Shown piece after piece: positions 11-60,975 of a stretch of DNA of 64,000 nucleotides. The notes under the pieces were generated by a model that saw nothing but the letters and a program-made list of their open reading frames with translations, was not told the DNA's origin and did not search any database. Location: the NCBI RefSeq assembly GCF_988243305.1, contig NZ_OZ547136.1; one strand, 5' to 3'. The translations under genes were made by a program, and so were the position numbers. Each line of letters starts with the position of its first letter. Position 1 is the stretch's first letter.

Positions 11-100
11 GTCGTTACCCTTTTTCAGGCAATAGTTGGCCCTGACCGAAGCGGCCAATTTTGTTTTTGTCGTTATTTACACCGCGGTTTCGCATTCATT

Positions 101-290
<190 letters not shown>

Positions 291-14637: not shown

Positions 14638-14649
14638 CACGCTACCGCC
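14638..14649 (-). promoter_or_regulatory. ops element (GGCGGTAGCGTG) within a JUMPStart sequence in the wza leader; RfaH-dependent antitermination site
   Basis: Plus strand 14638-14649 reads cacgctaccgcc, whose reverse complement is GGCGGTAGCGTG, the 12-nt ops consensus. It lies about 180 nt upstream of the wza start on the coding strand. Confidence 0.75.
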
Positions 14650-15117
14650 CCTGGCTTTTTAGCTACCAATACACTGATTTAGCTTAATTTTTAAAACCCT
14701 CTCAACATACAGTCGTTGATGAGAAAGGGTTATTGCGGAAATTAACTTCCGAATATAAGGTGACATTATGGTAATTGAATATTGGCTCTCCAATAATGCA
14801 GGAGGAAGTGTTACAGCTAACGGAATAGCAGGCAAGGTAACAATTCGGCAATTGGCTATTTTTAAGAATTATATTAAGTGTCATTCAACATGGTTTTTAG
14901 GAGTTTCTTTAGGTTGACAATATTTAATATAGTGTCTCCACATGCGATATTTCTTAAATAATGTTTTATTATTACCACTTTTAATTCAGGGATAATGTGA
15001 GGTTATAAACCTCAAATAATATGAGATAAATAGTGCTGCAACATTGCATTTTTGCCCCGATTTATCCATGATCGAATTGTGACATTTGTCATACAACGAA
15101 TAGGTTTTGTACTTACT

Positions 15118-28883: not shown

Positions 28884-29645
28884 TCATTCTGTCCACAGCG
28901 CCAGTGCCAACGTTTTATCATCATCCGTACGCTCGTTTACCGCCGGGCTGGACAAAAACTGCTTTAACAATTCAGGTAATAAATCGAGTTGTTCCTGCGT
29001 TGCTGACGCCAGTCCATTGAAAAACGGGGTAAAAAAAGGCACATGCGGAGAATTATTCAACATATTTAACGCCAGCCTCTGAATACCATCCGTAAATGCT
29101 GCAACTTTATGCGCACGCTCAGTACTGGTGTAAGTTTCCAGTCTGGAAACAGCATCGTCATCGGTAATGAAGTGCGTCATGTTGGCATATTCACCCACCA
29201 TCGGCGTGAGAGGCAATTGCAGACCGTGACCCAAATCTACCACCATGCCGCCATCGCCAATCTGCATAATCAAGGTGCCGTCAGGCGATGAAATCAGTCC
29301 CAGAAATGTACAGGCAAAATCGCGAACCGCTAATTCTTTGGCCTCTGCCTCGGCAAAAAGTCGCTGACGAATGGTCAGCACAATATCCGTGGCGAGGACA
29401 TCATTAAGCCCCAATTCCCCACCCTGCACTTTTTGCGACATATAAGCCATCGCTTCATTGACGGCGAGCATCGCGCCTTCGCCACCCTGCGAGACGCTGC
29501 CTGCGCCATCAGCGACAAATACCGACAATAATGGCTGCTGGTCATTTAACCAGGCAACCTGCATCTGGCAGGCATCCTGGCAAGGCAAGTCCGCGCTGAT
29601 GTGCGACGTTCCAACGGTTGATGCATAGACCAGACGCCAGCTCAC
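28884..29645 (-). CDS. pphC: PP2C-family Ser/Thr protein phosphatase PphC (YegK)
   Basis: 253-aa ORF with PP2C-like metal-binding aspartate motifs ([20 protein letters not shown]). Start codon overlaps the yegL stop by 4 nt. Confidence 0.85.
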
Positions 29646-30301
29646 ACTGACGTCCAGCCTTTTGGCGCTTCCAGCACAACTTCCGTTCCCGGCGTGGAGC
29701 GGGAAACCGAACGCAGCGAACTGGATAACCAGCTAAACAGTTCACGGAATTGTAATCCCTGCAGTGGCAAAGGCTGACGAACGCTGATTTGTGCCAAAGT
29801 CTTCATATCCGCCCCCTGAACACCGATGGAAAAGAAGGCAAACTTCTTATCTTCTTCCCCCTGAAACACTTTGTTGGCGGCAGCCTGCCACTCATCGGTT
29901 GGAGCGCCATCGGTGATCAGGAAAATCCACGGGCGATAATAGGAAATACCATTGGCGCGATACTCACGTTTGCGCTCCTCAACCATATCCAGGGCTTTGG
30001 TAATGGCGGCCCCCATTGGTGTATCGCCCTGGGCAAACAGGATGGGCGGGAAAAAATTAGCGGCGCTGGTAAAGGGTTGTTCCACATGCACCGGGCCGAA
30101 CGTCACAATACCGAGTTCCACTCTTTTTAAGGCCAGCGGATCGGCAAGCAGTTCATCGCGAAAGGTAACCAATCCGGCGTTAAGTTCATTAATAGGTCTA
30201 CCACTCATCGAACCAGAAACATCCAACAGCAAAATGCAGGGGCAACGTGGTTCCGGGTTACTGGCAAAATCGCTGGTGGCAAACGTGATTTGTTCGCTCA
30301 T
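29642..30301 (-). CDS. yegL: von Willebrand factor A (vWA) domain protein YegL, TerY-like
   Basis: 219-aa ORF with a MIDAS motif DVSGSMSG (res 27-34) and conserved v[11 protein letters not shown]. Confidence 0.85.
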
Positions 30302-30480
30302 AAGAAATCCTTTCTTAGAGAATTATTGAGGTCCGGTATCATACCGATTGCAATAATGAAATAAGAGCAAACGAAGAAACTTTCAGAATTAGGCCCGGCG
30401 GCGCAGAAAATTTTGCTATTCGCCTCGCAAGAACGGAGAGCCGTCGATTGACACTAAGGGCGGAGTGACATAATTTCAGG

Positions 30481-30628
30481 AGTGAGGGTTAGGGAGAGGT
30501 TTCTCCCTCCCCCTGGTGTTCTTAGTAAGCCTGGAAGCTAATCACTAAGAGTATCTCCAGTATGATGACGTGCTTCATCATAACCCTTTCCTTATTAAAA
30601 GCCCTCTTCTCCGGGAGAGGGTTTCCCG
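30481..30628 (+). ncRNA. sibA: Sib-family antisense sRNA (antitoxin), copy 1; boundaries approximate
   Basis: Plus-strand region fully antisense to the ibs ORF, preceded by a CATAAT -10-like hexamer (30469-30474) and ending at a GC-rich hairpin plus T-rich tract (gccctcttctccgggagagggtttcccgttt, ~30601-30628). Confidence 0.5.
30522..30581 (-). CDS. ibsA: Ibs-family type I toxin peptide, copy 1 (19 aa: MMKHVIILEILLVISFQAY)
   Basis: Minus-strand ATGATGAAG...TAA ORF read by hand; matches the Ibs hydrophobic peptide pattern MMK-h(15)-AY. Confidence 0.6.
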   Translation of the reverse strand: MMKHVIILEILLVISFQAY

Positions 30629-30815
30629 TTTCAGCGTCCCGCTGAAATCGTCGGCTTACCTCCTTTCGCCCTGAATGCAGTCTATCGCTAACGCGTGAAC
30701 AAAATAGTTTCCTCTGTGATTATTGCGTAACGACTCGCAAAGAATATTTGCTGGCAGGATCGCAGACTGAAAAGCCTGCAGATTGACAATCTTATCGTGA
30801 AGGCATAATTTCAGG

Positions 30816-30958
30816 AGTGAGGGTAGAGCGGGGTTTCCCCCGCCCTGGTAGTCTTAGTAAGCCGGGAAGCTTATGACTAAGAGCACCACGATGATGATCC
30901 ACTTCATCATGACCCTTTCCTTATTTAAGGCCCCTTCCTCGGGAGGGGCTTTCCCGTT
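30816..30958 (+). ncRNA. Sib-family antisense sRNA, copy 2; boundaries approximate
   Basis: Same arrangement as copy 1: CATAAT at 30804-30809, hairpin ggccccttcctcgggaggggcttt followed by a T-rich tract ending ~30958. Confidence 0.5.
30854..30910 (-). CDS. Ibs-family type I toxin peptide, copy 2 (18 aa: MMKWIIIVVLLVISFPAY)
   Basis: Minus-strand ORF read by hand inside repeat unit 2. Confidence 0.6.
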   Translation of the reverse strand: MMKWIIIVVLLVISFPAY

Positions 30959-31143
30959 TCAGCGTCCCGCTGAAATCGTCGGCTTACCTCCTTTCGCCCT
31001 GAATGCAGTCTATCGCTAACGCGTGAACAAAATAGTTTCCTCTGTGATTATTGCGTAACGACTCGCAAAGAATATTTGCTGGCAGGATCGCAGACTGCAA
31101 AGCCTGCAGATTGACAATCTTATCGTGAAGGCATAATTTCAGG

Positions 31144-31284
31144 AGTGAGGGTAGAGCGGGGTTTCCCCCGCCCTGGTAGTCTTAGTATGCTGGGTAGCTA
31201 ATCACTAAGAGCACCACGATGATGAGTAGCTTCATCATGACCCTTTCCTTATTTATGGCCCCTTCCTCGGGAGGGGCTTTCCCG
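31144..31284 (+). ncRNA. sibB: Sib-family antisense sRNA, copy 3; boundaries approximate
   Basis: Same arrangement: CATAAT at 31132-31137, hairpin and T-tract ending ~31284. Confidence 0.5.
31182..31238 (-). CDS. ibsB: Ibs-family type I toxin peptide, copy 3 (18 aa: MMKLLIIVVLLVISYPAY)
   Basis: Minus-strand ORF read by hand inside repeat unit 3; closest to IbsB as I recall it. Confidence 0.6.
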   Translation of the reverse strand: MMKLLIIVVLLVISYPAY

Positions 31285-31445
31285 TTTCAGCGTCCCGCTG
31301 AAATCATCGGCTTACCTCCTTTCGCCATGCACGTAGTCTATCGCTAACGCGTAGATAAAATAGTTTCATGTATTATTACTGGATGCGTGCTCGCAAATGT
31401 GCCCGCCATTCAGACGATTCCCGATAGTGTTTCATAATTCCTCCA

Positions 31446-31516: not shown

Positions 31517-32764
31517 ATGAAAGGCAGTTATAAATCCCGTTGGGTAATCGTAATCGTGGTGGTTATCGCCGCCATCGCCGCATTCTGGTTCTGGCAAGGC
31601 CGCAATGACTCCCGGAGTGCAGCCCCAGGGGCGACGAAACAAGCGCAGCAATCGCCAGCGGGTGGTCGCCGTGGTATGCGTTCCGGCCCATTAGCCCCGG
31701 TTCAGGCGGCGACCGCCGTAGAACAGGCAGTTCCGCGTTACCTCACCGGGCTTGGCACCATTACCGCCGCTAATACTGTTACGGTGCGCAGCCGCGTGGA
31801 CGGTCAACTGATGGCGTTACATTTCCAGGAAGGCCAGCAGGTCAAAGCAGGCGATTTACTGGCAGAAATTGACCCAAGCCAGTTCAAAGTTGCATTAGCA
31901 CAAGCCCAGGGCCAACTGGCAAAAGATAAAGCCACGCTTGCCAACGCCCGCCGTGACCTGGCGCGTTATCAGCAACTGGCAAAAACCAATCTCGTATCTC
32001 GTCAGGAACTGGATGCCCAACAAGCGCTGGTCAGTGAAACCGAAGGCACCATTAAGGCTGATGAAGCAAGCGTCGCCAGCGCGCAGCTGCAACTCGACTG
32101 GAGCCGCATCACCGCACCAGTCGATGGTCGCGTTGGTCTCAAGCAGGTTGATGTTGGTAACCAAATCTCCAGTGGTGATACCACCGGGATTGTGGTGATC
32201 ACCCAGACGCATCCTATCGATTTGCTCTTTACCCTGCCGGAAAGCGATATCGCTACCGTAGTACAGGCGCAAAAAGCCGGAAAACCGCTGGTTGTTGAAG
32301 CCTGGGATCGCACCAACTCGAAGAAATTAAGTGAAGGCACGCTGTTAAGTCTCGATAACCAAATCGATGCCACTACCGGTACGATTAAAGTGAAAGCACG
32401 CTTTAATAATCAGGATGATGCGCTGTTTCCCAATCAGTTTGTTAACGCGCGTATGTTAGTCGACACCGAACAAAACGCCGTGGTGATCCCCACCGCCGCT
32501 CTGCAAATGGGCAACGAAGGCCATTTTGTCTGGGTGCTGAATAGCGAAAACAAGGTCAGCAAACATCTGGTGACGCCGGGCATTCAGGACAGTCAGAAAG
32601 TGGTGATCCGCGCAGGTATTTCTGCGGGCGACCGCGTAGTGACGGATGGCATTGATCGCCTGACCGAAGGGGCGAAAGTGGAAGTGGTGGAAGCCCAGAG
32701 CGCCACCACTTCGGAAGAGAAAGCCACCAGCCGCGAATACGCGAAAAAAGGAGCACGCTCCTGA
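31517..32764 (+). CDS. mdtA: Multidrug efflux RND membrane fusion (periplasmic adaptor) protein MdtA
   Basis: ORF track gives 455 aa; I start at [26 protein letters not shown] (415 aa, ATG 31517), preceded by an RBS. Confidence 0.9.
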
Positions 32765-44520: not shown

Positions 44521-44604
44521 TTAATTTCGATTATTTTTCCCGGATGGAAAATTCTTAGAAACCGATCACATACAGCTGCATTTATTAAGGTTATCATCCG
44601 TTTC

Positions 44605-44691
44605 GCTGAAAAACATAACCCATAAAATGCTAGCTGTACCAGGAACCACCTCCTTAGCCTGTGTAATCTCCCTTACACGGGCTTATTTTTT
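44605..44691 (+). ncRNA. cyaR: CyaR (RyeE) Hfq-dependent, CRP-activated sRNA
   Basis: GCTGAAAAACATAACCCATAAAATGCTAGCTGTACCAGGAACCACCTCCTTAGCCTGTGTAATCTCCCTTACACGGGCTTATTTTTT read on the plus strand matches my recollection of E. coli CyaR, including the terminator hairpin and U-tract. Confidence 0.8.
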
Positions 44692-45581: not shown

Positions 45582-46481
45582 ATGGCAGAATTTCCCGCCA
45601 GCTTACTGATTCTTAATGGCAAAAGTACTGACAATTTACCATTGCGCGAAGCAATTATGCTGTTGCGTGAGGAAGGAATGACGATCCATGTGCGGGTCAC
45701 CTGGGAGAAAGGCGATGCCGCACGATATGTAGAGGAGGCCCGGAAGTTGGGCGTCGCAACGGTGATTGCCGGTGGTGGCGATGGCACCATTAATGAAGTT
45801 TCTACGGCGTTGATTCAGTGTGAGGGGGATGACATACCCGCGCTGGGAATTTTGCCATTAGGAACCGCCAATGATTTTGCCACCAGTGTAGGGATTCCTG
45901 AGGCACTGGATAAGGCGCTGAAACTGGCAATTGCCGGTAACGCCATTGCGATAGATATGGCGCAGGTCAACAAACAAACCTGTTTTATTAATATGGCGAC
46001 AGGCGGGTTTGGGACGCGTATTACCACAGAAACGCCGGAAAAATTAAAAGCCGCGCTGGGTGGCGTCTCTTACATCATTCATGGCTTAATGCGCATGGAC
46101 ACTCTGCAACCGGACCGTTGTGAGATCCGCGGTGAAAACTTTCACTGGCAAGGTGACGCCCTGGTCATTGGTATTGGTAACGGGCGTCAGGCCGGTGGCG
46201 GTCAACAATTGTGCCCGAACGCGTTAATTAACGATGGCTTGCTGCAACTGCGCATTTTTACCGGCGATGAAATTCTTCCGGCTCTCGTATCAACCTTAAA
46301 ATCTGACGAAGATAACCCGAATATTATCGAAGGCGCTTCGTCGTGGTTTGATATACAAGCCCCACACGAAATCACTTTTAATCTTGATGGCGAACCGTTG
46401 AGCGGACAAAACTTTCATATTGAAATACTTCCGGCGGCGTTGCGTTGTCGATTACCACCGGATTGTCCATTATTGCGTTAA
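45582..46481 (+). CDS. yegS: Lipid kinase YegS (diacylglycerol-kinase-like catalytic domain)
   Basis: 299-aa [21 protein letters not shown]...GGDGTINEV, a DAGK_cat signature. Confidence 0.9.
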
Positions 46482-46519
46482 TCAAACTATTCTCTCTTGA
46501 ACCAGGGAGAAACAGTTAT

Positions 46520-46553
46520 GCCGGATGCGGTATAAACACCTTATCCGGCCTAC
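46520..46553. repeat. REP element between yegS and gatR
   Basis: gccggatgcggtataaacaccttatccggcctac palindrome. Confidence 0.65.
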
Positions 46554-46562
46554 TGAACAATA

Positions 46563-47342
46563 CTACACCGTAATTAATTTCACCCGTGTCTTCTGCAATG
46601 CCAGTTTATCCACCTCTGACACGGCATCATCGGTAATAATAATGTCGATTTTTTCGATTGGCAGTACCTGATTAAAACCGCGACGATTAAATTTCGATGA
46701 ATCGAGAACGGCAATCACTTTATTTGCGGCTGTGACCATCGCCCCGCTAATCGAATAACCTTCATTAAAGGTCGTAATACCATTAACCGCATCAATACCA
46801 TCAGCACCGACAAACATTAAATCGGCATTAATATCCTGCAATGAACGCTCGGCAATGGAACCATGCATCGAGCGTGTTTTATGGCGGACGGTCCCACCAC
46901 AGACGACCAGAGTAATGTCTTTATTTTCGGAAAGGGCAAACGCCGCCGGGAGACTGTTGGTAATCACCGTGATATTTTTGGCGGTCATTAAACCTTCGGC
47001 GATAAGCATTGTGGTACTTCCGCTGTCGAGAATAACGGTCATCCCTTCGTGGATCATTTTGACTGCCGCCTGCGCTATTCTGTTTTTTGGCGCACTGGCG
47101 AGCTGAAATCGCTCTTTAAACCCAACTTCCTGGGTCTCGGTTTCACTATTACCGGACATTATTTTCGCCGCACCGCCATGAAAGCGCGTAACTACGCCTT
47201 TTTGTTCGAGAAAGCGCAAATCGGCACGGATTGTCGCTTCCGAGGCAGCAAATACTCCCGCCAGATCCTGAACAAGCACGGTTCCCTGTTCATTCACTAA
47301 TTGGATGATCTTATTCCTTCGCTCGAATGAATTCATCGTCAT
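46563..47342 (-). CDS. gatR: DeoR-family transcriptional repressor of the galactitol operon (intact)
   Basis: 259-aa uninterrupted ORF MTMNSFERRNKIIQLVNEQGTVLVQDLAGVFAASEATIRADLRFLEQKGVV (DeoR HTH) plus a C-terminal sugar-binding domain. Confidence 0.88.
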   Translation of the reverse strand: MTMNSFERRNKIIQLVNEQGTVLVQDLAGVFAASEATIRADLRFLEQKGVVTRFHGGAAKIMSGNSETETQEVGFKERFQLASAPKNRIAQAAVKMIHEGMTVILDSGSTTMLIAEGLMTAKNITVITNSLPAAFALSENKDITLVVCGGTVRHKTRSMHGSIAERSLQDINADLMFVGADGIDAVNGITTFNEGYSISGAMVTAANKVIAVLDSSKFNRRGFNQVLPIEKIDIIITDDAVSEVDKLALQKTRVKLITV

Positions 47343-47441
47343 TTACCCATATTCAATTGTGGCTAGTGTAAACGAAGGGGGACCATTGGTGAATGATCTG
47401 TTTTGCACAATACCGGGCCAGCATCACGCTGGCCCGCGGTT

Positions 47442-48482
47442 TCAGGGAATGAGCAACACTTTGCCCGGCATAGCATTACGAGCGATGTCACGCACCGCCT
47501 GGGCGAAGCTTTCAAAGCTTCCACGGTGAGCGATTAATGGCTCCAGGCTTAACTTACGTTCTGTCAGCAACCGGCTCGCCGTTTCCCACTCCTGCCCCGG
47601 CCAAGGGCTGGAGTAGTTCATCCAGCTGCCGATAACCGTCAGCTCTTTACGCAATATTTTGCCAAACGTTGCCGATGTTAAATGCAGATCCTGATGCAAC
47701 GTGCCCACCAGCGCCAGCTGGGCATGAGGCCCGGCAATCTCTACCGCCAGTTCGACGGTTTGCGGGACGCCAGCCGTCTCGAGGATAAGCTGATTAAAGC
47801 GCAGTTCGCGTAAAACGCTCTGCATTTGCGGCGCGCTCATTTCGCTACTGTTAAATGTTTGCATCGCACCGAAAGATTTTGCCAGTGCCAGTTTTTCTGA
47901 GCTAATGTCGATAGCCGTCACACTCTTTGCTCCCAGCGCGACAGCGCACTGAATTGCCAGCAGGCCAATGGTTCCGGCACCAATAATAATAACGTTTTTA
48001 TTCTCACAACCTTGCGCTAAATGAAAAGCATGCAGGCCAACGGTAATCGGTTCAATAAAAGCCCCATCCTCAATAGGCATATCCGTGGGTAGAGCAAAGA
48101 CATTTTTTCGCTTAACGACAATATATTCAGCAAATCCACCATCACGCCGCGAGCCAATAAAATCATATTTTGCGCACTGGGAATAAAACCCTTTCAAACA
48201 CTCTGGACAAGTAAAACAGGGTAATAACGGCACACAGGCAACCGCATCGCCAGGGTGTAAATCATCAACACCGGATCCCACCGCATCAATATAGCCGCTA
48301 AATTCATGGCCTAACGTTATTGGATAATAATGTGCACCATTTTTAAATATCCTGGGTAAATCGGAACCACATAAGCCCGAGCTGGTAATTTTTACCCGTA
48401 CCTCATCCTGATGTTTAATTTCAGGAATGACGCTTTCTGCAACGCGCACGATACCATCAGTATCATTCACCACTGATTTCAT
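47442..48482 (-). CDS. gatD: Galactitol-1-phosphate 5-dehydrogenase (Zn-dependent MDR family)
   Basis: 346-aa ORF with MDR zinc-ligand motifs (GHEFSG, CxxCxxC) and a Rossmann GAGTIG motif. Confidence 0.92.
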   Translation of the reverse strand: MKSVVNDTDGIVRVAESVIPEIKHQDEVRVKITSSGLCGSDLPRIFKNGAHYYPITLGHEFSGYIDAVGSGVDDLHPGDAVACVPLLPCFTCPECLKGFYSQCAKYDFIGSRRDGGFAEYIVVKRKNVFALPTDMPIEDGAFIEPITVGLHAFHLAQGCENKNVIIIGAGTIGLLAIQCAVALGAKSVTAIDISSEKLALAKSFGAMQTFNSSEMSAPQMQSVLRELRFNQLILETAGVPQTVELAVEIAGPHAQLALVGTLHQDLHLTSATFGKILRKELTVIGSWMNYSSPWPGQEWETASRLLTERKLSLEPLIAHRGSFESFAQAVRDIARNAMPGKVLLIP

Positions 48483-48529
48483 AAAAACTCCTGATTGTTA
48501 AGGGGGATTACCTCCCCCTCAGGTAAAAA

Positions 48530-49885
48530 TTATTCTGCGAGAACGGCTTTCTCTTGTTTAATAAAACCACGCGCTCTACGCCAGGTCATGAAAATACCGG
48601 TCAGATAAATTGCGCCGATAATAATGAAACCGGGAATATTTTGCGGGGAGAAAACCTGAATCAGTAACCAGGTAATGGGAGAACCGCCCTGATCCATTGA
48701 AGCCACCATACCCCCGGCTTTTAACGCCCCAGCATTAGCCGCCAGTTGGGTGTGCAAACCAATAGTTTGCGTCGCGATCCACAGGGTGATGCTCATAATG
48801 ATGACACCCGAGATTAAGGTGCGGAACAGATTTCCACGATGCACGGCAACTGCCATCGCCACAAAGAAGCCGATAGTTGCAAGATCGCCAAACGGCAGCA
48901 CCTGATTACCCGGCACACAAACAGCAATTAAAATGGTGAGCGGGATAAAAATCAGGCTTGCCGATACCACCGCCGTATGCCCCAGCAGCAACGCCGGATC
49001 AAGGCCAATCAGGAACTCCTGACCGCCGAACTTCGCCTGTAAACGACTACGGGCCTGCTTAGCGATGGGCGTTAAACCATCCATGATGGGTTTAATCACC
49101 CGTGGCATCAGCAGCATCACCGCCGCCGTTTTTACCGCCAGCTGCAATACACCTTTGACATCGTAACCCGCGAGGATGCCGATAATCAGCCCCATCACAA
49201 AACCCACGGTGACAGGCTCGCCAAACGGACCAAATTTGCGCTGAATATCGTCGGCGCTAAATTTAATACGGTTAACGCCTGGGATTTTCTCGATGATAGC
49301 ATCCACCAGCACCGCAATTGGCCCCAGATACGCCGACGTACCGTGCGGAATAGCAATGCCTTCCAGCTCAAAGAAATTTCGGGTATCGCGGGCAAACCAG
49401 TCGCCGAGCTTATAAACAAACGCCGCGTGAATTACCACACCCGCCATCCCTATCATCCATGAACCGGTTGCCAGATGCAGCAACGCGCCGGTGAAGGTCA
49501 TATGCCAGATATTCCAGATATCAACATTTACCACCCGCGTCATACGGGTCAGTAGCATCGCCACGTTAACCAGAATCGCAATCGGAATCGCCACCAGCGC
49601 AATTTGCGACGCCCAGGTCATTGGTGAAGAGCCCGGCCAACCGACATCGACCACATGCAGATTCAGGTCGAAATTTTCCGCCATCGCTTTCGCCGCCGGG
49701 CCAATGGAATCCAGCATTAAGCCAATCACAAGGCCAATGCCAACAAAGCCAATCCCGATATGCAGACCTGCTTTAAAGCAATCGCCTGCCTTCATGCCTA
49801 ATATTTTAGAAAAAATAATGATGACAATCGGTAGCATCACCGTAGGGCCGAGGTCGAGAATATAACGCATGACTTCTGAAAACAT
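48530..49885 (-). CDS. gatC: PTS galactitol-specific EIIC component
   Basis: 451-aa polytopic membrane ORF within the gat operon. Confidence 0.92.
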   Translation of the reverse strand: MFSEVMRYILDLGPTVMLPIVIIIFSKILGMKAGDCFKAGLHIGIGFVGIGLVIGLMLDSIGPAAKAMAENFDLNLHVVDVGWPGSSPMTWASQIALVAIPIAILVNVAMLLTRMTRVVNVDIWNIWHMTFTGALLHLATGSWMIGMAGVVIHAAFVYKLGDWFARDTRNFFELEGIAIPHGTSAYLGPIAVLVDAIIEKIPGVNRIKFSADDIQRKFGPFGEPVTVGFVMGLIIGILAGYDVKGVLQLAVKTAAVMLLMPRVIKPIMDGLTPIAKQARSRLQAKFGGQEFLIGLDPALLLGHTAVVSASLIFIPLTILIAVCVPGNQVLPFGDLATIGFFVAMAVAVHRGNLFRTLISGVIIMSITLWIATQTIGLHTQLAANAGALKAGGMVASMDQGGSPITWLLIQVFSPQNIPGFIIIGAIYLTGIFMTWRRARGFIKQEKAVLAE

Positions 49886-49888
49886 AGG

Positions 49889-50173
49889 TCACCCCTGTAA
49901 GATAGTCAGAATTTTATTTTGTAATGCTTCGATACCGACACCAGAAACAAAAGGCATGCCGTGAACTAACGGAATATCGCCAAAACTACGGTCAACTTTG
50001 GCGGTAGTACATATCAAATGCACGCCATCCATATAGGTTTCTATTTCATTAACCCGACACTGGATTAATTCAACAGGAATATTATGACTCTGACACAACT
50101 CTTTAATTTCTTCCGCCGCCATCGTAGAGGTCGCAACCGCGCCTCCGCAAGCGACAATAATCTTGCGTTTCAT
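49889..50173 (-). CDS. gatB: PTS galactitol-specific EIIB component
   Basis: 94-aa [26 protein letters not shown], with the EIIB active-site Cys region. Confidence 0.92.
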
Positions 50174-50203
50174 AAATAGTCCTTTTTATTGTTACAGAGG
50201 GAT

Positions 50204-50656
50204 TTATTCGTCTGAATCTAAAACATACTTTGTGAAGTATTCCTTTAACTGGGTTTCAGGAAGAGTGATTAGTGTCTCGACGATATCGGGCTGTTGTAAC
50301 TTGCCAAATAAACAGCGTAAAAGTTTCAATTGCTGCTGCGGATTTTCCACAATCAACGCAATAACCAACGATACCGCCACGTCATTATCATCATCCGCTT
50401 GCTGAAAATGAACTTTATTTGTTGGCCTTAACAGATAAATGGCTGACGACTTAGCATGAATCGCCTCACAATGCGGTATTGCGATGGCGTGCTGCTCAAG
50501 CATTATCCCGGTAGGGAATTCTGCTTCTCTGGCAATTAATGCCTGTGGCCAGGTATCATGAACCACACCTTTCGCGAGCATCTCATTACCGATATGGGTT
50601 AAAACTTCGCTACGATCGGCAAAAGAAATTCCGCTACGAACAAACAGGTTAGTCAT
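50204..50656 (-). CDS. gatA: PTS galactitol-specific EIIA component
   Basis: 150-aa ORF; operon position between gatZ and gatB. Confidence 0.9.
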   Translation of the reverse strand: MTNLFVRSGISFADRSEVLTHIGNEMLAKGVVHDTWPQALIAREAEFPTGIMLEQHAIAIPHCEAIHAKSSAIYLLRPTNKVHFQQADDDNDVAVSLVIALIVENPQQQLKLLRCLFGKLQQPDIVETLITLPETQLKEYFTKYVLDSDE

Positions 50657-50665
50657 ATACCATCC

Positions 50666-52865
<2,200 letters not shown>

Positions 52866-53041
52866 TTAAATGTCGAGATAACGATCACAAAAACGACAAT
52901 ATGAAAATTGTTCGAGGAGTGAAAGGCAAAAAAAACGGCCTCCCGATAGGGAAGCCGTAGCAAAGTGCGCGTGTTTTTATGCCGGATGCGACGTAAACGC
53001 CTTTTCCGTCATACGTGGTAGTGCTGTTCGTATAAGGCGTA

Positions 53042-54094
53042 TCAGGCGATAGTAATTTTGCTATCGAGATAAACGTCCTGCACGGCGTTAATCAGTTTCA
53101 CGCCGTCAGCCATCGATTTCTTGAACGCCTTACGTCCAAGAATCAGCCCCATTCCGCCAGCGCGTTTGTTGATGACCGCAGTACGCACTGCATCGCTGAG
53201 GTCAGTTTCACCGCCTGCAGCACCGCCGGAGTTTATCAACCCTGCCCGGCCCATATAGCAGTTAGCTAACTGATAACGCACCAGATCAATCGGGTTTTCG
53301 CTGGTCAATTTGCTATAAACACGATCGTCGGTATAACCGTAATTAATCGCTTTATAGCCGCCGTTATTTTCCGCCATTTTTTGTTTGACGATATCCGCAC
53401 CTATAGTCGCCGCCAGATGGTTTGCCTGACCGGTCAGGTCGGCGGAAACATGGTAATCAACGCCATCTTTCTTAAAGGCGGAGTTACGCAAATAGGCCCA
53501 CAGCACTGTCACCATGCCCAGCTCGTGCGCACGTTCAAAAGCCGCAGAAATTTCTTCAATCTGGCGTCGTGACTCTTCCGAGCCAAAATAGATAGTCGCC
53601 CCAACCGCCACCGCGCCCATGTTGAACGCCTGCTCCACGCTGGCATACAGCGTTTGATCGTAGGTATTCGGGTAACTTAGCGTCTCGTTGTGATTAAGTT
53701 TGACGAGGAATGGAATGCGATGCGCGTAACGCCGCGATACCGACGCCAGCACGCCGTAAGTTGACGCCACGCAGTTACAGCCCGCTTCGATCGCCAGTTC
53801 AACAATGTTTTTCGGGTCAAAGTAGAGCGGGTTAGCGGCAAATGAAGCTCCGGCAGAGTGCTCAACGCCCTGGTCAACCGGCAGAATAGAAAGATATCCT
53901 GTGCCAGCCAGACGCCCAGTGTTGTACAACGTCTGCATATTACGTAACACCGCTGGCGGGCGATTATTGTCAATCATCACGCGGTCTACGTAGTCATGTC
54001 CGGGGAGATAAAGCTGGTCAGAAGGAATAGTCATACAACGGTGCTGTAAAAGGTTGTCGGCGTCTTTGCCAAGCAACTGCGCAATATCTGTCAT
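53042..54094 (-). CDS. fbaB: Fructose-bisphosphate aldolase class I
   Basis: Track ORF 374 aa; I start at [32 protein letters not shown] (350 aa, ATG 54092-54094). Confidence 0.9.
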
Positions 54095-54350
54095 TACTAT
54101 GCTCCCGTAAATTCCGATTGGATATCGGCTATGGATTGTCCTGGCCCGCCTTTTGCGGGCAATCATAATCCTGGTCGTTACAGGCGAGTTTTTCCATCTT
54201 TTGGATGTTTTTTCAGCGTTTTCTGTTGGCTCGATTCATCAGAAAAAATGTTACCGCGGTCAAGTTTTCACCGCAAAGGTATTTAAAAGGTATTATTAAA
54301 TGGTATTGTCATCGCGTACCTTACATTACCTGTCATGAAGGAATTAAAAG

Positions 54351-55628
54351 ATGAAAACAACAGCAAAGCTGTCGTTCATGATGTTTGTTGAATGGTTTAT
54401 CTGGGGCGCGTGGTTTGTGCCATTGTGGTTGTGGTTAAGTAAAAGCGGTTTTAGTGCCGGAGAAATTGGCTGGTCGTATGCCTGTACCGCCATTTCGGCG
54501 ATCCTGTCGCCAATTCTGGTTGGCTCCATCACTGACCGCTTTTTCTCGGCGCAGAAAGTGCTGGCGGTATTGATGTTCGCTGGCGCGGTACTGATGTATT
54601 TCGCTGCGCAACAGACCACTTTTGCCGGGTTCTTCCCGTTACTGCTGGCCTACTCGCTAACCTATATGCCGACCATTGCGCTGACTAACAGTATCGCTTT
54701 TGCCAACGTGCCGGATGTGGAGCGTGATTTCCCACGCATTCGTGTGATGGGCACTATCGGCTGGATTGCCTCCGGTCTGGCATGTGGATTTTTGCCGCAA
54801 ATGCTGGGTTATGCCGATATCTCTCCGACTAACATCCCGCTGCTGATTACCGCCGGAAGTTCTGCTCTGCTCGGTGTGTTTGCGTTTTTCCTGCCCGACA
54901 CGCCGCCAAAAAGCACCGGCAAAATGGACATTAAAGTCATGCTCGGCCTGGATGCGCTGATCCTGCTGCGCGATAAAAACTTCCTCGTCTTTTTCTTCTG
55001 TTCATTTCTGTTTGCGATGCCACTGGCGTTCTATTACATCTTTGCCAACGGTTATCTGACCGAAGTTGGCATGAAAAACGCCACCGGCTGGATGACGCTC
55101 GGCCAGTTCTCTGAAATCTTCTTTATGCTGGCATTGCCGTTTTTTACCAAACGCTTTGGTATCAAAAAGGTATTATTGCTTGGTCTGGTCACCGCTGCGA
55201 TCCGCTATGGCTTCTTTATTTACGGTAGTGCGGATGAATATTTCACCTACGCGTTACTGTTCCTCGGTATTTTGCTTCACGGCGTAAGTTACGATTTTTA
55301 CTACGTTACCGCTTACATCTATGTCGATAAAAAAGCCCCCGTGCATATGCGTACCGCCGCGCAGGGGCTGATCACGCTCTGCTGCCAGGGCTTCGGCAGT
55401 TTGCTCGGCTATCGTCTTGGCGGTGTGATGATGGAAAAGATGTTCGCTTATCAGGAACCGGTAAACGGGCTGACCTTCAACTGGGCCGGGATGTGGACTT
55501 TTGGCGCGGTGATGATTGCCATTATCGCCGTGCTGTTCATGATTTTTTTCCGCGAATCCGACAACGAAATTACGGCTATCAAGGTCGATGATCGCGATAT
55601 TGCGTTGACACAAGGGGAAGTTAAATGA
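54351..55628 (+). CDS. yegT: Nucleoside:H+ symporter-family MFS transporter YegT
   Basis: 425-aa hydrophobic ORF MKTTAKLSFMMFVEWFIWGAWFVPLWLWL, resembling the NupG/XapB family. Confidence 0.85.
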   Translation: MKTTAKLSFMMFVEWFIWGAWFVPLWLWLSKSGFSAGEIGWSYACTAISAILSPILVGSITDRFFSAQKVLAVLMFAGAVLMYFAAQQTTFAGFFPLLLAYSLTYMPTIALTNSIAFANVPDVERDFPRIRVMGTIGWIASGLACGFLPQMLGYADISPTNIPLLITAGSSALLGVFAFFLPDTPPKSTGKMDIKVMLGLDALILLRDKNFLVFFFCSFLFAMPLAFYYIFANGYLTEVGMKNATGWMTLGQFSEIFFMLALPFFTKRFGIKKVLLLGLVTAAIRYGFFIYGSADEYFTYALLFLGILLHGVSYDFYYVTAYIYVDKKAPVHMRTAAQGLITLCCQGFGSLLGYRLGGVMMEKMFAYQEPVNGLTFNWAGMWTFGAVMIAIIAVLFMIFFRESDNEITAIKVDDRDIALTQGEVK

Positions 55629-56629
55629 AAACAGAACGTATTCTCGGTGCTCTTTACGGGCAGGCGTTAGGGGATGCGATGGGGATGCCCTCCGAGCTTT
55701 GGCCACGCAGCCGCGTTAAAGCACACTTTGGCTGGATTGACCGTTTTCTGCCTGGACCAAAGGAGAATAACGCGGCCTGTTATTTTAACCGCGCCGAATT
55801 CACCGACGATACCTCGATGGCGCTGTGTCTGGCGGATGCGTTGCTGGAACGTGAAGGCAAGATCGATCCGGATCTGATTGGGCGTAATATTCTCGACTGG
55901 GCGCTACGTTTCGACGCCTTCAACAAAAACGTGCTAGGTCCGACCTCGAAGATTGCGCTTAACGCCATTCGCGACGGTAAACCCGTTGCTGAACTGGAAA
56001 ACAACGGCGTGACCAACGGCGCAGCGATGCGCGTCTCGCCATTAGGTTGTTTGCTTCCGGCGCGCGATGTTGATTCCTTTATTGATGATGTGGCGCTGGC
56101 GTCCAGCCCGACCCATAAATCCGATCTGGCGGTTGCAGGTGCGGTAGTCATCGCGTGGGCAATTTCTCGTGCCATTGACGGAGAAAGCTGGTCAGCGATT
56201 GTTGATTCTCTACCCTCGATTGCGCGACATGCACAGCAAAAACGCATCACCACCTTCAACGCCTCACTGGCGGCGCGGCTGGAGATTGCGCTGAAAATTG
56301 TGCGCAATGCCGACGGCACCGAATCCGCCAGCGAACAGCTTTACCAGGTCGTTGGCGCAGGTACCAGCACTATTGAGTCCGTTCCGTGCGCCATTGCGCT
56401 GGTTGAACTGGCTCAAACCGACCCGAACCGTTGCGCCGTCCTGTGCGCTAACCTTGGCGGCGACACAGACACCATCGGTGCTATGGCAACAGCAATTTGC
56501 GGCGCGTTGCATGGCGTTAAAGCAATCGATCCTGCGTTAAAGACGGAACTGGATGCGGTAAATCAGCTTGATTTCAACCGCTATGCCACAGCGCTGGCGA
56601 AATATCGTCAACAACGGGAGGCGGTATGA
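55625..56629 (+). CDS. yegU: ADP-ribosylglycohydrolase-family protein YegU
   Basis: 334-aa ORF MKTERILGALYGQALGDAMGMP, the typical DraG/ARH family N-terminus; overlaps the yegT stop by 4 nt. Confidence 0.85.
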   Translation: MKTERILGALYGQALGDAMGMPSELWPRSRVKAHFGWIDRFLPGPKENNAACYFNRAEFTDDTSMALCLADALLEREGKIDPDLIGRNILDWALRFDAFNKNVLGPTSKIALNAIRDGKPVAELENNGVTNGAAMRVSPLGCLLPARDVDSFIDDVALASSPTHKSDLAVAGAVVIAWAISRAIDGESWSAIVDSLPSIARHAQQKRITTFNASLAARLEIALKIVRNADGTESASEQLYQVVGAGTSTIESVPCAIALVELAQTDPNRCAVLCANLGGDTDTIGAMATAICGALHGVKAIDPALKTELDAVNQLDFNRYATALAKYRQQREAV

Positions 56630-57591
56630 GCGGCGCTCGATTACACACGCTGCTGCCTGAATTAACCACGCGTCAGTCGGTGATGGTCGTCGGCGCGGCG
56701 GTCATTGACGTGATCGCCGACGCTTATGCCCTCCCCTGGCGTGGGTGCGATATCGAACTGAAACAGCAGAGCGTTAACGTTGGCGGCTGCGCACTGAATA
56801 TTGCCGTGGCGTTAAAGCGCCTCGGCATCGAAGCGGGTAATGCCCTGCCGCTCGGTCAGGGCGTGTGGGCGGAGATTATTCGCAACCGGATGGCGAAAGA
56901 GGGGTTAATCAGCCTGATCGATAACGCTGAAGGCGATAACGGCTGGTGTCTGGCGCTGGTTGAGCCGGATGGCGAACGCACTTTTATGTCATTCAGTGGT
57001 GTGGAAAATCAGTGGAATCGCGAATGGCTGGCGCGATTAACCGTTGCGCCTGGCAGCCTGCTCTATTTTTCCGGTTATCAACTGGCCTCGCCCTGCGGCG
57101 AATTGTTAGTGGAATGGCTGGAAGAGCTGCAAGACGTGACGCCGTTTATCGATTTTGGCCCACGTATTGGTGATATCCCGGATGCATTACTTGCGCGGAT
57201 CATGGCCTGTCGACCTGTCGTATCACTCAATCGTCAAGAGGCTGAGATTGCCGCCGAACGTTTTGCTTTATCCGCAGAGATAACAACGCTTGGCAAGCAA
57301 TGGCAGGAAAAATTTGCCGCGTCGTTGATCGTTCGTCTCGATAAAGAAGGTGCCTGGTATTTCAGCGACAACACGTCAGGCTGCGCTCCCGCATTTCCAA
57401 CGCAAGTTGTAGACACCATTGGCGCAGGTGATAGCCACGCAGGTGGCGTACTTGCCGGGCTGGCCTCCGGTCTGCCACTGGCGGATGCCGTATTACTGGG
57501 CAATGCAGTGGCATCGTGGGTTGTCGGACATCGGGGCGGTGATTGCGCGCCGACGCGCGAGGAACTACTCCTCACACACAAAAACGTATAG
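56626..57591 (+). CDS. yegV: PfkB-family carbohydrate/nucleoside kinase YegV
   Basis: 321-aa ORF with the PfkB C-terminal motif DTIGAGDSHAGG; overlaps the yegU stop by 4 nt. Confidence 0.85.
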   Translation: MSGARLHTLLPELTTRQSVMVVGAAVIDVIADAYALPWRGCDIELKQQSVNVGGCALNIAVALKRLGIEAGNALPLGQGVWAEIIRNRMAKEGLISLIDNAEGDNGWCLALVEPDGERTFMSFSGVENQWNREWLARLTVAPGSLLYFSGYQLASPCGELLVEWLEELQDVTPFIDFGPRIGDIPDALLARIMACRPVVSLNRQEAEIAAERFALSAEITTLGKQWQEKFAASLIVRLDKEGAWYFSDNTSGCAPAFPTQVVDTIGAGDSHAGGVLAGLASGLPLADAVLLGNAVASWVVGHRGGDCAPTREELLLTHKNV

Positions 57592-58311
57592 ATCGCTACG
57601 ACAGTGGCTGATGCTGTACTCAATAGGCCGTTGCTGTTGGTCAAGTGCCACTTGCTTGATCACCAGCACCGGTATTTTGCTATCTAACTGAATATGTGAC
57701 TGAAACTCAGCATCCGGCATTCGGGCGCTAACACGGGAACGGGTACGCTTTGGAAAAATATGCTGACTGCGAAAGTAGTCATAGAGAGAAATACCGATGG
57801 CATCAACATCATGAATTAAATGCGCCGGAACCCACGATTCCTCAATGGATACCGCGTCTTCATCGACATAGCGAATACGCTTAAGCAAAAAGACATCACT
57901 GCCCGCTTCGACCGCCAGTTGCTGCGCCACCTCTTCAGGGCATTTAACCACTCGCTTGTTAACCCACAGCGTATCGGGCTTTTTCCCGCGCAACACCACC
58001 TGTTGAGAAAAACCTCGCGCTTCTTTCAACGAGTATTCAAAGATGTTGTTGATCTGCGTGCCGTAACCACGCGAACGTGTCACCACGCCCTCTTCTTCCA
58101 GCGCCTGCATCGCCTTGCGCACCGTAATACGCGAAACGCCGGTTAACTGACTTAAATCACGCTCGCCGGGTAAAATATTGCCATGTTCCAGCACCCCGCT
58201 GCGCACGGCATTTTTTACCGTTTCGGCAAACTTAATATAAAGCGGCGTGTTGTCCGCCGCTAAAATACGTTCATTCAGTTGAGCAATAAGCTGGGTATGC
58301 GCTTGTTCCAT
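57565..58311 (-). CDS. yegW: GntR/HutC-family transcriptional regulator YegW
   Basis: 248-aa ORF with an N-terminal GntR HTH (LPGERDLSQLTGVSRITVRKAMQALEEEGVV) and a UTRA-like C-terminal domain. Confidence 0.85.
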   Translation of the reverse strand: MEQAHTQLIAQLNERILAADNTPLYIKFAETVKNAVRSGVLEHGNILPGERDLSQLTGVSRITVRKAMQALEEEGVVTRSRGYGTQINNIFEYSLKEARGFSQQVVLRGKKPDTLWVNKRVVKCPEEVAQQLAVEAGSDVFLLKRIRYVDEDAVSIEESWVPAHLIHDVDAIGISLYDYFRSQHIFPKRTRSRVSARMPDAEFQSHIQLDSKIPVLVIKQVALDQQQRPIEYSISHCRSDLYVFVCEE

Positions 58312-58362
58312 TTGTCTTTTTCCAGGCGATGAGTCTGGAGGAAGTATATCACTGCTGGTTAT

Positions 58363-59181
58363 TTAAGGCGTTTCTTTAATGTCATCAACGAAAGCCTGCA
58401 ATTCCTCCACCTTGCCATTAAACACATTAAAATCCACCGGACCATTAATGCCATCTACCTGTCCACGGTCGGAATGCTGCCAGAAGTGCCAGGCCATTCC
58501 GTCATTGTCCGGACGACGTTGATAATAGTGCGCCACCCACCACGGATACTCATTGAAATACCCCGCCAGATTCGTGTGATAAAACACGGCTCCGGAGTAA
58601 ATAATCGGCTTTTTTCCCGTGCTTTTTTCGACCATTTTTAGCCACTGACTTACCCGCTTGCGTAATTCTTTTGCCGATAATTTTCCTCGCTCTTCTACGT
58701 CCAGCACGGCAGGGAAATCGCCGTGGGCAAAATCCACCGTTTGCAGAAATAATCTGGCCTGAACTGAAGCGGATACCGACGGGGAAAAATAATGATACGC
58801 CCCGCGCAGCAGGCCATTTTCGCGGCTTAGTTGCCAGTTACGCGAAAAATAGGGGTCCACCAGCTTTTCGCCTTCCGTCGCCTTAATAAAGGCAAATTGT
58901 AAGCGAATACCGTTATCGCGCATTTTTGCCACCCGCTGCCAGTCGATCCGTTCCTGCCAGCGCGAAACATCTATTCCGTGAATGGTGTAACTGGCAGGAA
59001 TGCGAATAGCGAAAGATTTAACCGGGCGATAACCGTAGAAGTGGATGTAGTCTTTAATCTGAATTGCTGTCGAATAGAAAAAATTCACCGTCTGACGCGG
59101 ATGAATCGCAACGATGGAAATTAGCCCAAGAGAGCATAATAAAGCGGTGAATTTTTTTCGACTGGTGATTCTAAGCTGCAT
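58363..59181 (-). CDS. yegX: Glycoside hydrolase family 25 (lysozyme-like) protein YegX
   Basis: Start placed at MQLRITSRKKFTALLCSLGLISIV (272 aa); an ATG three codons upstream (59188-59190) is an alternative. GH25-like DVSRWQ motif after the signal/anchor sequence. Confidence 0.8.
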   Translation of the reverse strand: MQLRITSRKKFTALLCSLGLISIVAIHPRQTVNFFYSTAIQIKDYIHFYGYRPVKSFAIRIPASYTIHGIDVSRWQERIDWQRVAKMRDNGIRLQFAFIKATEGEKLVDPYFSRNWQLSRENGLLRGAYHYFSPSVSASVQARLFLQTVDFAHGDFPAVLDVEERGKLSAKELRKRVSQWLKMVEKSTGKKPIIYSGAVFYHTNLAGYFNEYPWWVAHYYQRRPDNDGMAWHFWQHSDRGQVDGINGPVDFNVFNGKVEELQAFVDDIKETP

Positions 59182-59245
59182 TGGTTTCATCCCTGAATGT
59201 CAGCGCCAAAGACTGACAATAACCAAAGCAGCTATAGTAAGGTGC

Positions 59246-60046
59246 TCACCACCACGCGTGGAAGTGGTGAACCGGACCAATACCGTGACCAACTTCCAGC
59301 GTGTCGGCCTGGGCTAACGCCGATGAAAGCCAGCTTTTTGCCTCCTGTACGGTGTCAGCCCAGTTTGTATGGCGCGGGCGTAGTGCAGCCAACGCCGCAG
59401 AGAGTGTACAACCAGTGCCGTGGGTGTTTTTGGTCATAATGCGCGGTGCGGTAAACCGTTGTTCACCCTCGCGGGTAAACAGCCAGTCCGGGCTTTGCTC
59501 ATCATCCAGATGACCACCTTTCATTAGCACTGCGCCACAGCCCATCGCCAACAGCGATCGCCCTTGTTCCAGCATTTCCTGTTCGGTGCGCGCGTGTGGC
59601 GCGTCGAGCAAGGCGGCAGCTTCGGGCAAGTTTGGCGTTATTAATGAAACCTGTGGCAATAATCGACTGCGCAGCGTAGCAACCGCCGAAGGTGAAAGCA
59701 GCGGGTCGCCGCTTTTTGCCAGCATAACGGTGTCGAGTACCACGTTTTGGATCTGATAACGTTGCAACCTTTCTGCCACCGCTTCAACAATATCGGTTTC
59801 CGCCAACATACCGATTTTAGTGGTGTCGATTCGCACATCGCTGAACACCGAATCGAGCTGGGCGGCGACAAAATCAGGCTCAATGCGATACACCGACTGT
59901 ACGCCACGGGTATTTTGCGCCACCAGTGCAGTAATCACTGAGCAACCATAAGCGCCAAGTGCCGAGAAGGTTTTAAGATCGGCCTGAATCCCCGCACCAC
60001 CACTCGGATCAGTACCGGCAATCGTCAGAGCGTTAATTCGTTTCAT
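59246..60046 (-). CDS. thiD: Hydroxymethylpyrimidine/phosphomethylpyrimidine kinase
   Basis: 266-aa [37 protein letters not shown], a canonical ThiD N-terminus. Confidence 0.93.
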
Positions 60047-60831: not shown

Positions 60832-60975
60832 AGTTTGCTCCTGCCATAACGTGAAGAAGCAATGACCTGGTGGTCCGTGACTTCCCTACGCTGGCATTAT
60901 CCAGATCAGGTGATACGGGTATTTCTCAGCCTTCACGCAGAAGGGCACCCCGAGTCGTTTGATTGCGATGATAAA
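60832..60975 (-). promoter_or_regulatory. TPP (thi-box) riboswitch in the thiM 5' leader
   Basis: Reverse complement of ~60878-60955 reads GACTCGGGGTGCCCTTCTGCGTGAAGGCTGAGAAATACCCGTATCACCTGATCTGGATAATGCCAGCGTAGGGAAGTC, containing the conserved CTGAGA and thi-box core and lying directly upstream of thiM. Confidence 0.9.

Follow-up and report, generated by a model that had tools for sequence, protein, structure and literature searches.

Three tandem Ibs/Sib type I toxin-antitoxin modules upstream of mdtA as a common state of a one-to-four-unit array in Escherichia coli

Tandem repeats of small toxin-antitoxin modules raise a recurrent question, namely whether a copy number that departs from the reference strain marks a recent event or an ordinary state of a variable locus. 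The region between yegL and mdtA is a case in point. In Escherichia coli K-12 MG1655 it carries two Ibs/Sib modules, sibA/ibsA and sibB/ibsB, as the original prediction for this DNA had stated. In the window analysed here, a stretch of 64,000 nucleotides from contig NZ_OZ547136.1 (assembly GCF_988243305.1), the same gap holds three. In this study, we dissected this array and compared it with those of other genomes. Our results indicate, with a probability of about 0.9, that the region consists of three tandem Ibs/Sib type I toxin-antitoxin modules, one of the IbsA/SibA type followed by two of the IbsB/SibB type, that it lies at the ancestral position upstream of mdtA, and that it represents a common allele of a polymorphism of one to four units and not a fresh duplication.

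The three units follow one another head to tail with periods of 335 and 328 bp (Table 1). When their boundaries are set at perfect TTGACA -35 boxes, dissection of the window sequence yields unit lengths of 335, 328 and 328 bp, and unit 3 gradually loses its similarity to units 1 and 2 in the stretch that precedes mdtA. A repeat search of the window returned direct-repeat families of three copies with start-to-start distances of 328-335 bp. Hence, the triple direct repeat of ~330 bp described in the original prediction is borne out, including its end near position 31397. Moreover, the Rfam scan that had been called for leaves little doubt about the family. The model RF00113 (SIB_RNA) matches the plus strand of the window three times and at full length (model positions 1-147), with scores of 142-146 bits against a curated gathering threshold of 56 bits for this covariance model of sequence and structure. 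The corresponding E-values (1e-29 to 3e-30) lie far beyond chance. Together with three ibs open reading frames and the yegL and mdtA flanks, these matches agree with the predicted family, position and count of three. The homology and the anatomy of the array are, in this sense, direct observations.

Table 1. Coordinates of the features of the yegL-mdtA array, in positions of the window
Feature	Position	Strand	Basis or remark
yegL	29642-30301	-	flanking gene
Repeat unit 1 (SibA/IbsA-type module and inter-unit spacer 1)	30448..30782, 335 bp	+	-35 boxes; direct-repeat families D2-D5
Sib1 putative promoter	-35 TTGACA 30448-30453, 15-nt spacer, CATAAT 30469-30474	+	sequence; RF00113 model positions 1-28
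Sib1 RNA (SibA type, 144 nt)	30484..30627	+	RF00113 145.9 bits (30448-30596); fold -54.8 kcal/mol, z -4.4
ibs1 ORF, 19 aa MMKHVIILEILLVISFQAY	30581..30522	-	ORF list; identical to WP_072146903.1
Sib1 terminator hairpin (CCCTCTTCTCCGGGAGAGGG), then TTTCC	30602..30626	+	fold, sequence
Putative ibs1 promoter	30647..30675; -35 TTCAGG, N17, -10 GACGAT (30652..30647)	-	alignment with K-12 ibsC/ibsD upstream regions
Spacer 1	30622-30782	+	between units 1 and 2
Repeat unit 2 (SibB-type module and inter-unit spacer 2)	30783..31110, 328 bp	+	repeat search, dissection
Sib2 putative promoter	TTGACA 30783, CATAAT 30804	+	sequence
Sib2 RNA (SibB type, 136 nt)	30819..30954	+	RF00113 141.6 bits (30783-30925); fold -61.7 kcal/mol, z -4.6
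ibs2 ORF, 18 aa MMKWIIIVVLLVISFPAY	30910..30854	-	ORF list; identical to WP_012767741.1
Sib2 terminator hairpin	30931-30954	+	fold, sequence
Putative ibs2 promoter	30975..31003; TTCAGG, N17, GACGAT (30980..30975)	-	alignment with K-12 ibsC/ibsD upstream regions
Spacer 2	30950..31110	+	between units 2 and 3; 160/161 identical to spacer 1
Repeat unit 3 (SibB-type module and proximal part of spacer)	31111..31397	+	third copy of D2 at 31259-31397, 82% identical
Sib3 putative promoter	TTGACA 31111, CATAAT 31132	+	sequence
Sib3 RNA (SibB type, 136 nt)	31147..31282	+	RF00113 143.1 bits (31111-31253); fold -58.1 kcal/mol, z -3.7
ibs3 ORF, 18 aa MMKLLIIVVLLVISYPAY	31238..31182	-	ORF list; identical to WP_001386901.1
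Sib3 terminator hairpin	31259-31282	+	fold, sequence
Putative ibs3 promoter	31303..31331; TGCATG, N17, GATGAT (31308..31303)	-	alignment with K-12 ibsC/ibsD upstream regions
mdtA	31517-32764	+	flanking gene

All three units carry an intact ibs open reading frame on the minus strand. The predicted hydrophobic open reading frames of 18-19 codons are present, and the peptides follow the Ibs family pattern, MM(K/R)...(A/T)Y. Each is preceded by the Shine-Dalgarno sequence AAGGAAAGGG, which ends 2 nt before the ATG (5-6 nt when counted from the AGGA/GGAA core). PGAP names the database proteins to which the three peptides correspond exactly as Ibs family toxins (for WP_012767741.1, 'type I toxin-antitoxin system Ibs family toxin'). 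In Salmonella, IbsA activity requires a basic residue at position 3 and the conserved Leu11 (preprint 10.1101/2025.05.26.656083); K3 and L11 are present in the three peptides of the window. The hydrophobic core is unbroken in the ibs2 and ibs3 peptides, and a Glu occupies position 9 in ibs1. When the sequences preceding the ibs genes are aligned with those of K-12 ibsC and ibsD, for which Han et al. 2010 (PMC2943612) determined the start sites, every unit appears to keep a weak putative ibs promoter. For ibs1, this promoter predicts a 5' UTR of ~59 nt.

On the plus strand, the ends of the three Sib RNAs were transferred from the K-12 sibA/sibB annotation. So delimited, the RNAs contain the three ibs open reading frames and their Shine-Dalgarno sequences, fold well below shuffled controls, and end in a strong 3' hairpin. 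In all the units, a CATAAT lies 15 nt downstream of a perfect TTGACA. TAATTT (30471-30476 in Sib1) is an alternative -10; its spacer would measure 17 nt, and 7 nt separate it from the 5' end given in the K-12 annotation. The 3' hairpins comprise 9-11 bp, are rich in G+C, and are followed by TTTCC(C)GTTTC. The plus-strand signals noticed originally, CATAAT boxes at 30469, 30804 and 31132 and hairpins with a T-tract, were thus found, with the qualification that the T-tract is interrupted. A generic promoter and terminator scan called none of the Sib signals, as its rules require a spacer of 16-18 nt, against 15 nt here, and do not cover a broken T-tract. We do not take this result as evidence against the signals, since the K-12 homologues are annotated RNAs. 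The putative promoters and terminators are assigned by homology to the annotated ends of K-12 sibA and sibB.

How such modules would work can be proposed from K-12 SibC/ibsC and related pairs, from which transcription, repression and toxicity at this locus are inferred. The minus strand of each unit would give rise to an mRNA for a hydrophobic Ibs peptide of 18-19 residues that resides in the inner membrane, and the plus strand would produce a Sib RNA of ~136-144 nt, perfectly complementary to the whole ibs initiation region and open reading frame. Sib would be made constitutively, and pairing would begin at one of two exposed segments, TRD1, inside the open reading frame, or TRD2, over the ribosome-binding region. 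It has been reported that either TRD suffices for pairing and that the ibs mRNA is then degraded (PMC2943612). In the units described here, pairing would likewise lead to degradation of the ibs mRNA and translational silencing, and toxin would appear only if Sib falls. Ibs peptides insert in the inner membrane and collapse the membrane potential and ATP (PMC8309996; preprint 10.1101/2025.05.26.656083). Finally, exchange among the repeats, through unequal recombination and gene conversion, would maintain the polymorphism of one to four units.

The closest known counterparts of this array are the K-12 modules sibA/ibsA and sibB/ibsB (QUAD1a/1b), which share its intergenic region, orientation and architecture. 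In the alignment of the units to each other and to K-12 that the original prediction proposed, Sib1 lies 3 nt from SibA, and Sib2 and Sib3 lie 6 and 5 nt, respectively, from SibB. The window differs from K-12 in having three units instead of two and an IbsA with the change V9E. Of note, K-12 IbsB (MMKLL...SFPAY) resembles unit 3 in its N-terminal variant and unit 2 in its C-terminal one. We considered K-12 IbsB as a chimera of units 2 and 3 left by a deletion in a three-unit ancestor, and downgraded this idea to one of two equal options, because the three-unit arrays of CE10, O145 and 158274-3 contain the LL...F allele as a unit of its own. Simple loss of the terminal unit explains the K-12 state equally well. 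Three-unit arrays of the same count and spacing are annotated by PGAP in O169:H41 strain Res13-Lact-PER13-34, O157:H7, CE10 and O145. The O169:H41 array, which is the best match to ours, agrees with the window in the toxins of units 2 and 3 and in their order; unlike the window, it has a wild-type IbsA and its spacers 1 and 2 differ from each other by 12 nt. The other three-unit strains carry different combinations of IbsB-type alleles.

Beyond this locus, SibC/ibsC is the member that has been dissected by experiment (reportedly by Fozo in 2008, and by Han in 2010). This pair belongs to the same RF00113 family, and its antisense RNA likewise overlaps the toxin gene completely, TRD1 lying in the open reading frame and TRD2 over the translation-initiation region. 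It differs in its locus, between fau and serA, and in being single copy, and identical runs between SibC and Sib2 or Sib3 do not exceed 7 nt in the recognition segments. The ldr/rdl modules of E. coli encode an unrelated 35-aa toxin and an unrelated RNA, and their antisense overlap is restricted to the 5' end. They resemble the Ibs/Sib array as tandem genes for a small membrane toxin and an antisense RNA with a strain-variable copy number (PMC2887945).

The distribution of copy number among complete genomes can be read directly from their sequences. The array and its flanks match 5,422 records among 5,426 complete E. coli genomes, and we counted units in two systematic rank samples of 40 and 60 rows, which together provide 98 distinct records. 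Three units were found in 40 of them (~40%), two in 42 (42%), four in 12 (12%), and a single unit in 3 (3%). Matches covering only 85% of the query proved to be four-unit arrays. Thus, the view of three copies as a notable departure, implied in the original prediction, does not survive comparison with the species at large. The toxins of these E. coli genomes are annotated as Ibs by PGAP. The composition of the array also varies, as illustrated by an ST131 array that lacks the IbsA-type unit. These counts are in line with a previous study describing strain-to-strain numbers of four to seven Ibs genes and discussing tandem duplication of ibs-sib (Fozo et al. 2010, PMC2887945). In that work, six to seven Ibs genes were reported for O157:H7 versus five for K-12, four for S. 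flexneri, and seven each for S. boydii and E. fergusonii. The three units that we found at yegL-mdtA in O157:H7 agree with the number given there for this serotype. Outside E. coli, one unit lies directly upstream of mdtA in many Citrobacter species, Kluyvera, S. enterica diarizonae and E. albertii; E. whittamii has at least one and Pseudocitrobacter two next to mdtA. The presence of an mdtA-adjacent unit in several genera indicates that the position is old and that tandem expansion is mainly a feature of Escherichia. Altogether, the three-unit array is an ordinary and already annotated polymorphism of E. coli, and the two units of K-12 are another common state of it.

The near-identity of the sequences flanking units 2 and 3 had been taken as a sign of recent tandem duplication. 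The near-identity itself is real: spacers 1 and 2 differ at a single one of 161 positions, and a 300-nt repeat (D1) is 96% identical between its copies. If a SibB/IbsB unit had been duplicated recently in this strain, these are the similarities that one would expect. However, such an event would copy the core as well, and the near-identity is confined to the inter-unit spacers. Between the 136-nt cores of Sib2 and Sib3 there are 10 differences, which group in the recognition loops. Moreover, in O169:H41 the unit 2 core is identical to Sib2 and that of unit 3 is 1 nt off Sib3, next to spacers that have diverged. Differences between spacers amount to 10-12 in O169 and WP4 versus one here, and both IbsB-type peptides of the window, as well as an exact copy of the Sib2 core, are found again in strains with spacers of this kind. 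The frequency of three-unit arrays among complete genomes also argues against a strain-specific origin, as do the four-unit arrays of LP26 and 22a, in which near-identical adjoining spacers sit beside different cores. We therefore regard a recent duplication of one unit as very improbable. The differences from O169:H41 point to another origin of the near-identity. There are 22 of them over 1.4 kb, and 11 are packed in 31002-31061, inside spacer 2, the pattern left when conversion copies a short tract of spacer 1 into its neighbour. Spacer 2 is probably such a gene-conversion tract, and an old array that recombines, with gene conversion between its spacers, accounts for the data better than a fresh duplication. 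A different objection is that assembly or polishing created the third repeat or made the two spacers nearly identical. Tandem repeats of 328 bp exceed the length of short reads, and the exact array is found in no complete E. coli genome, with a best match of 98.4%. Yet the flanks have diverged to the same extent (identities of 98.2% over 24 kb and 97.9% over 14 kb), the three distinct cores correspond to known alleles in a known order, and a simple copy-over would not leave the one base that still distinguishes the two spacers. Judged from these features of the sequence, an assembly artefact appears very unlikely.

A further alternative concerns the activity of the array and not its origin. 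It could be partly decayed, with unit 1 disarmed by a non-toxic IbsA V9E and only units 2 and 3 acting as functional pairs. The ibs1 change is GTG to GAG (T at 30556 on the plus strand), and strain WP4-S18-ESBL-07 carries the same allele (PGAP WP_072146903.1). It places a Glu for a Val in the middle of the hydrophobic segment, and the toxicity of IbsC is known to need its central hydrophobic residues 6-19, with at least 10 hydrophobic residues (review PMC8309996). The allele is rare, since 15 of the 5,426 complete genomes match the 101 nt around V9E at 100% identity, and Citrobacter species also have variants that disrupt the core. In addition, K-12 tolerates the loss of SibA, and expression of ibsA was without effect in cells deleted for ibsA/sibA (PMC2943612), which suggests a weak constraint on unit 1. 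Against a disarmed unit 1, its open reading frame, Shine-Dalgarno sequence, promoters and Sib1 are all intact and the allele persists in those 15 genomes. In an alanine scan of Salmonella IbsA only H3 and L11 proved essential (preprint 10.1101/2025.05.26.656083), indicating that many single changes are tolerated. On balance, we hold it possible but somewhat doubtful that the charge in the hydrophobic core weakens the IbsA toxin, and a partly decayed array with two active pairs is a tentative reading, at somewhat less than even odds.

Returning to the reading of three modules in a common polymorphic array, the question arises whether the two SibB-type units are independent of each other. Of the differences between Sib2 and Sib3, five map to the TRD1-equivalent segment, four to the P6 loop and the remaining one to +110, so that over TRD2 and the ribosome-binding region the two RNAs are identical for 26 nt in a row. 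Since either TRD suffices in SibC, Sib2 and Sib3 may repress each other's targets via their common TRD2. This prediction is weakened by K-12 SibD and SibE, which have a 36-nt identical run overlapping TRD2 and are reported not to cross-react, so that a long identical run alone is not sufficient. A strict orthogonality of the units within an array is not supported, as the arrays of LP26 and 22a hold two SibB-type units 1 nucleotide apart.

The variation among SibB-type units was surveyed in 33 units from 17 dissected arrays. From +1 to +117 of Sib, 16 positions are variable, 14 of which lie in +42-57, +80-83 or +110-112. The P of ~2e-10 for this clustering refers to patches picked after seeing the data and cannot count as an unbiased test. 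If the TRD windows defined beforehand by Han 2010 are used instead, P is 0.016 when only TRD1 is considered and 0.063 for both TRDs together. Seven of the 16 variable positions lie in the TRD1-equivalent segment (+41 to +63), and four of these seven are purely synonymous third-codon changes. Codons 6-11 are invariant across the 33 units. In the 17 arrays, residues 4-5 (LL, WI or IL) and 15 (F, Y or W) of the IbsB-type peptides occur in most combinations and in varied orders. The modest clustering fits the proposal by Han et al. that specificity evolves in the TRDs, and is not new in kind. A further idea, which we judge rather unlikely, is that the yegL-mdtA locus behaves as an array of cassettes that recombine and so generate new Sib/ibs specificities in their recognition loops. 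If true, units 2 and 3 would be distinct at TRD1 and redundant at TRD2, and either Sib could serve as a backup for its neighbour.

Earlier publications already cover the Ibs/Sib family, this locus, the mechanism and the differences in copy number between strains, and annotation of the genes is routine. The array thus carries little weight as a discovery, and its main use is as a correction. The two copies of K-12 are not the norm of the species, given that three are equally common and four are not rare, and comparisons referenced to K-12 consequently overstate how unusual such arrays are. In addition, if SibB-type neighbours that share TRD2 do protect against each other's toxins, this would bear on whether tandem type I modules act independently or redundantly.

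The strain from which this window derives belongs to a lineage without a close representative among 5,426 complete E. coli genomes. In this set, the top identities reached just 98.2% for positions 19000-43000 and 97.9% for positions 46000-60000, and the top-matching strain was not the same for the two segments.

The make-up of the Ibs/Sib array differs between E. coli strains. In the O25b:H4-ST131 strain 5506, the array consists of two SibB-type units and the IbsA-type unit is absent. One-unit and four-unit arrays were also found in other strains. In our window, codon 9 of ibs1, the toxin ORF of the IbsA-type unit, carries a V9E substitution (position 30556), which places a charged residue within the hydrophobic core of the peptide. 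This IbsA allele, annotated as WP_072146903.1, was present in 15 of the 5,426 complete genomes.

Beyond the array, Rfam matches revealed several other RNA elements in the window (see table). The algC RNA motif, naRNA4 and JUMPstart matches are presumably part of the polysaccharide gene clusters on the left side of the window. The RNA-OUT match indicates an IS10 copy at its right edge.

Promoter-like site and other RNA elements in the window
Feature	Position	Strand	Basis
algC RNA motif	15-64	-	Rfam match, 77 bits
naRNA4	151-221	+	Rfam match, 73 bits
JUMPstart element	14638-14676	-	Rfam match, 57 bits
Promoter-like TTCAGA-N18-CATAAT	31409-31438	+	Generic promoter scan; ~80 nt 5' of mdtA start codon
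CyaR sRNA	44603-44688	+	Rfam match, 101 bits
TPP riboswitch	60866-60962	-	Rfam match, 72 bits
RNA-OUT of IS10	63885-63954	+	Rfam match, 99.5 bits

The promoter-like site preceding mdtA was the sole sigma-70-like site called in the region by the generic scan. Among species-representative genomes, those of Citrobacter, Kluyvera, S. enterica diarizonae and E. albertii share one conserved Sib/ibs unit immediately 5' of mdtA. At least one unit lies directly upstream of this gene in E. whittamii, and Pseudocitrobacter carries two units upstream of it. Core-disrupting changes are present in some of these copies, namely R7 in C. amalonaticus, P11 in C. braakii and a lost stop codon in C. sedlakii.
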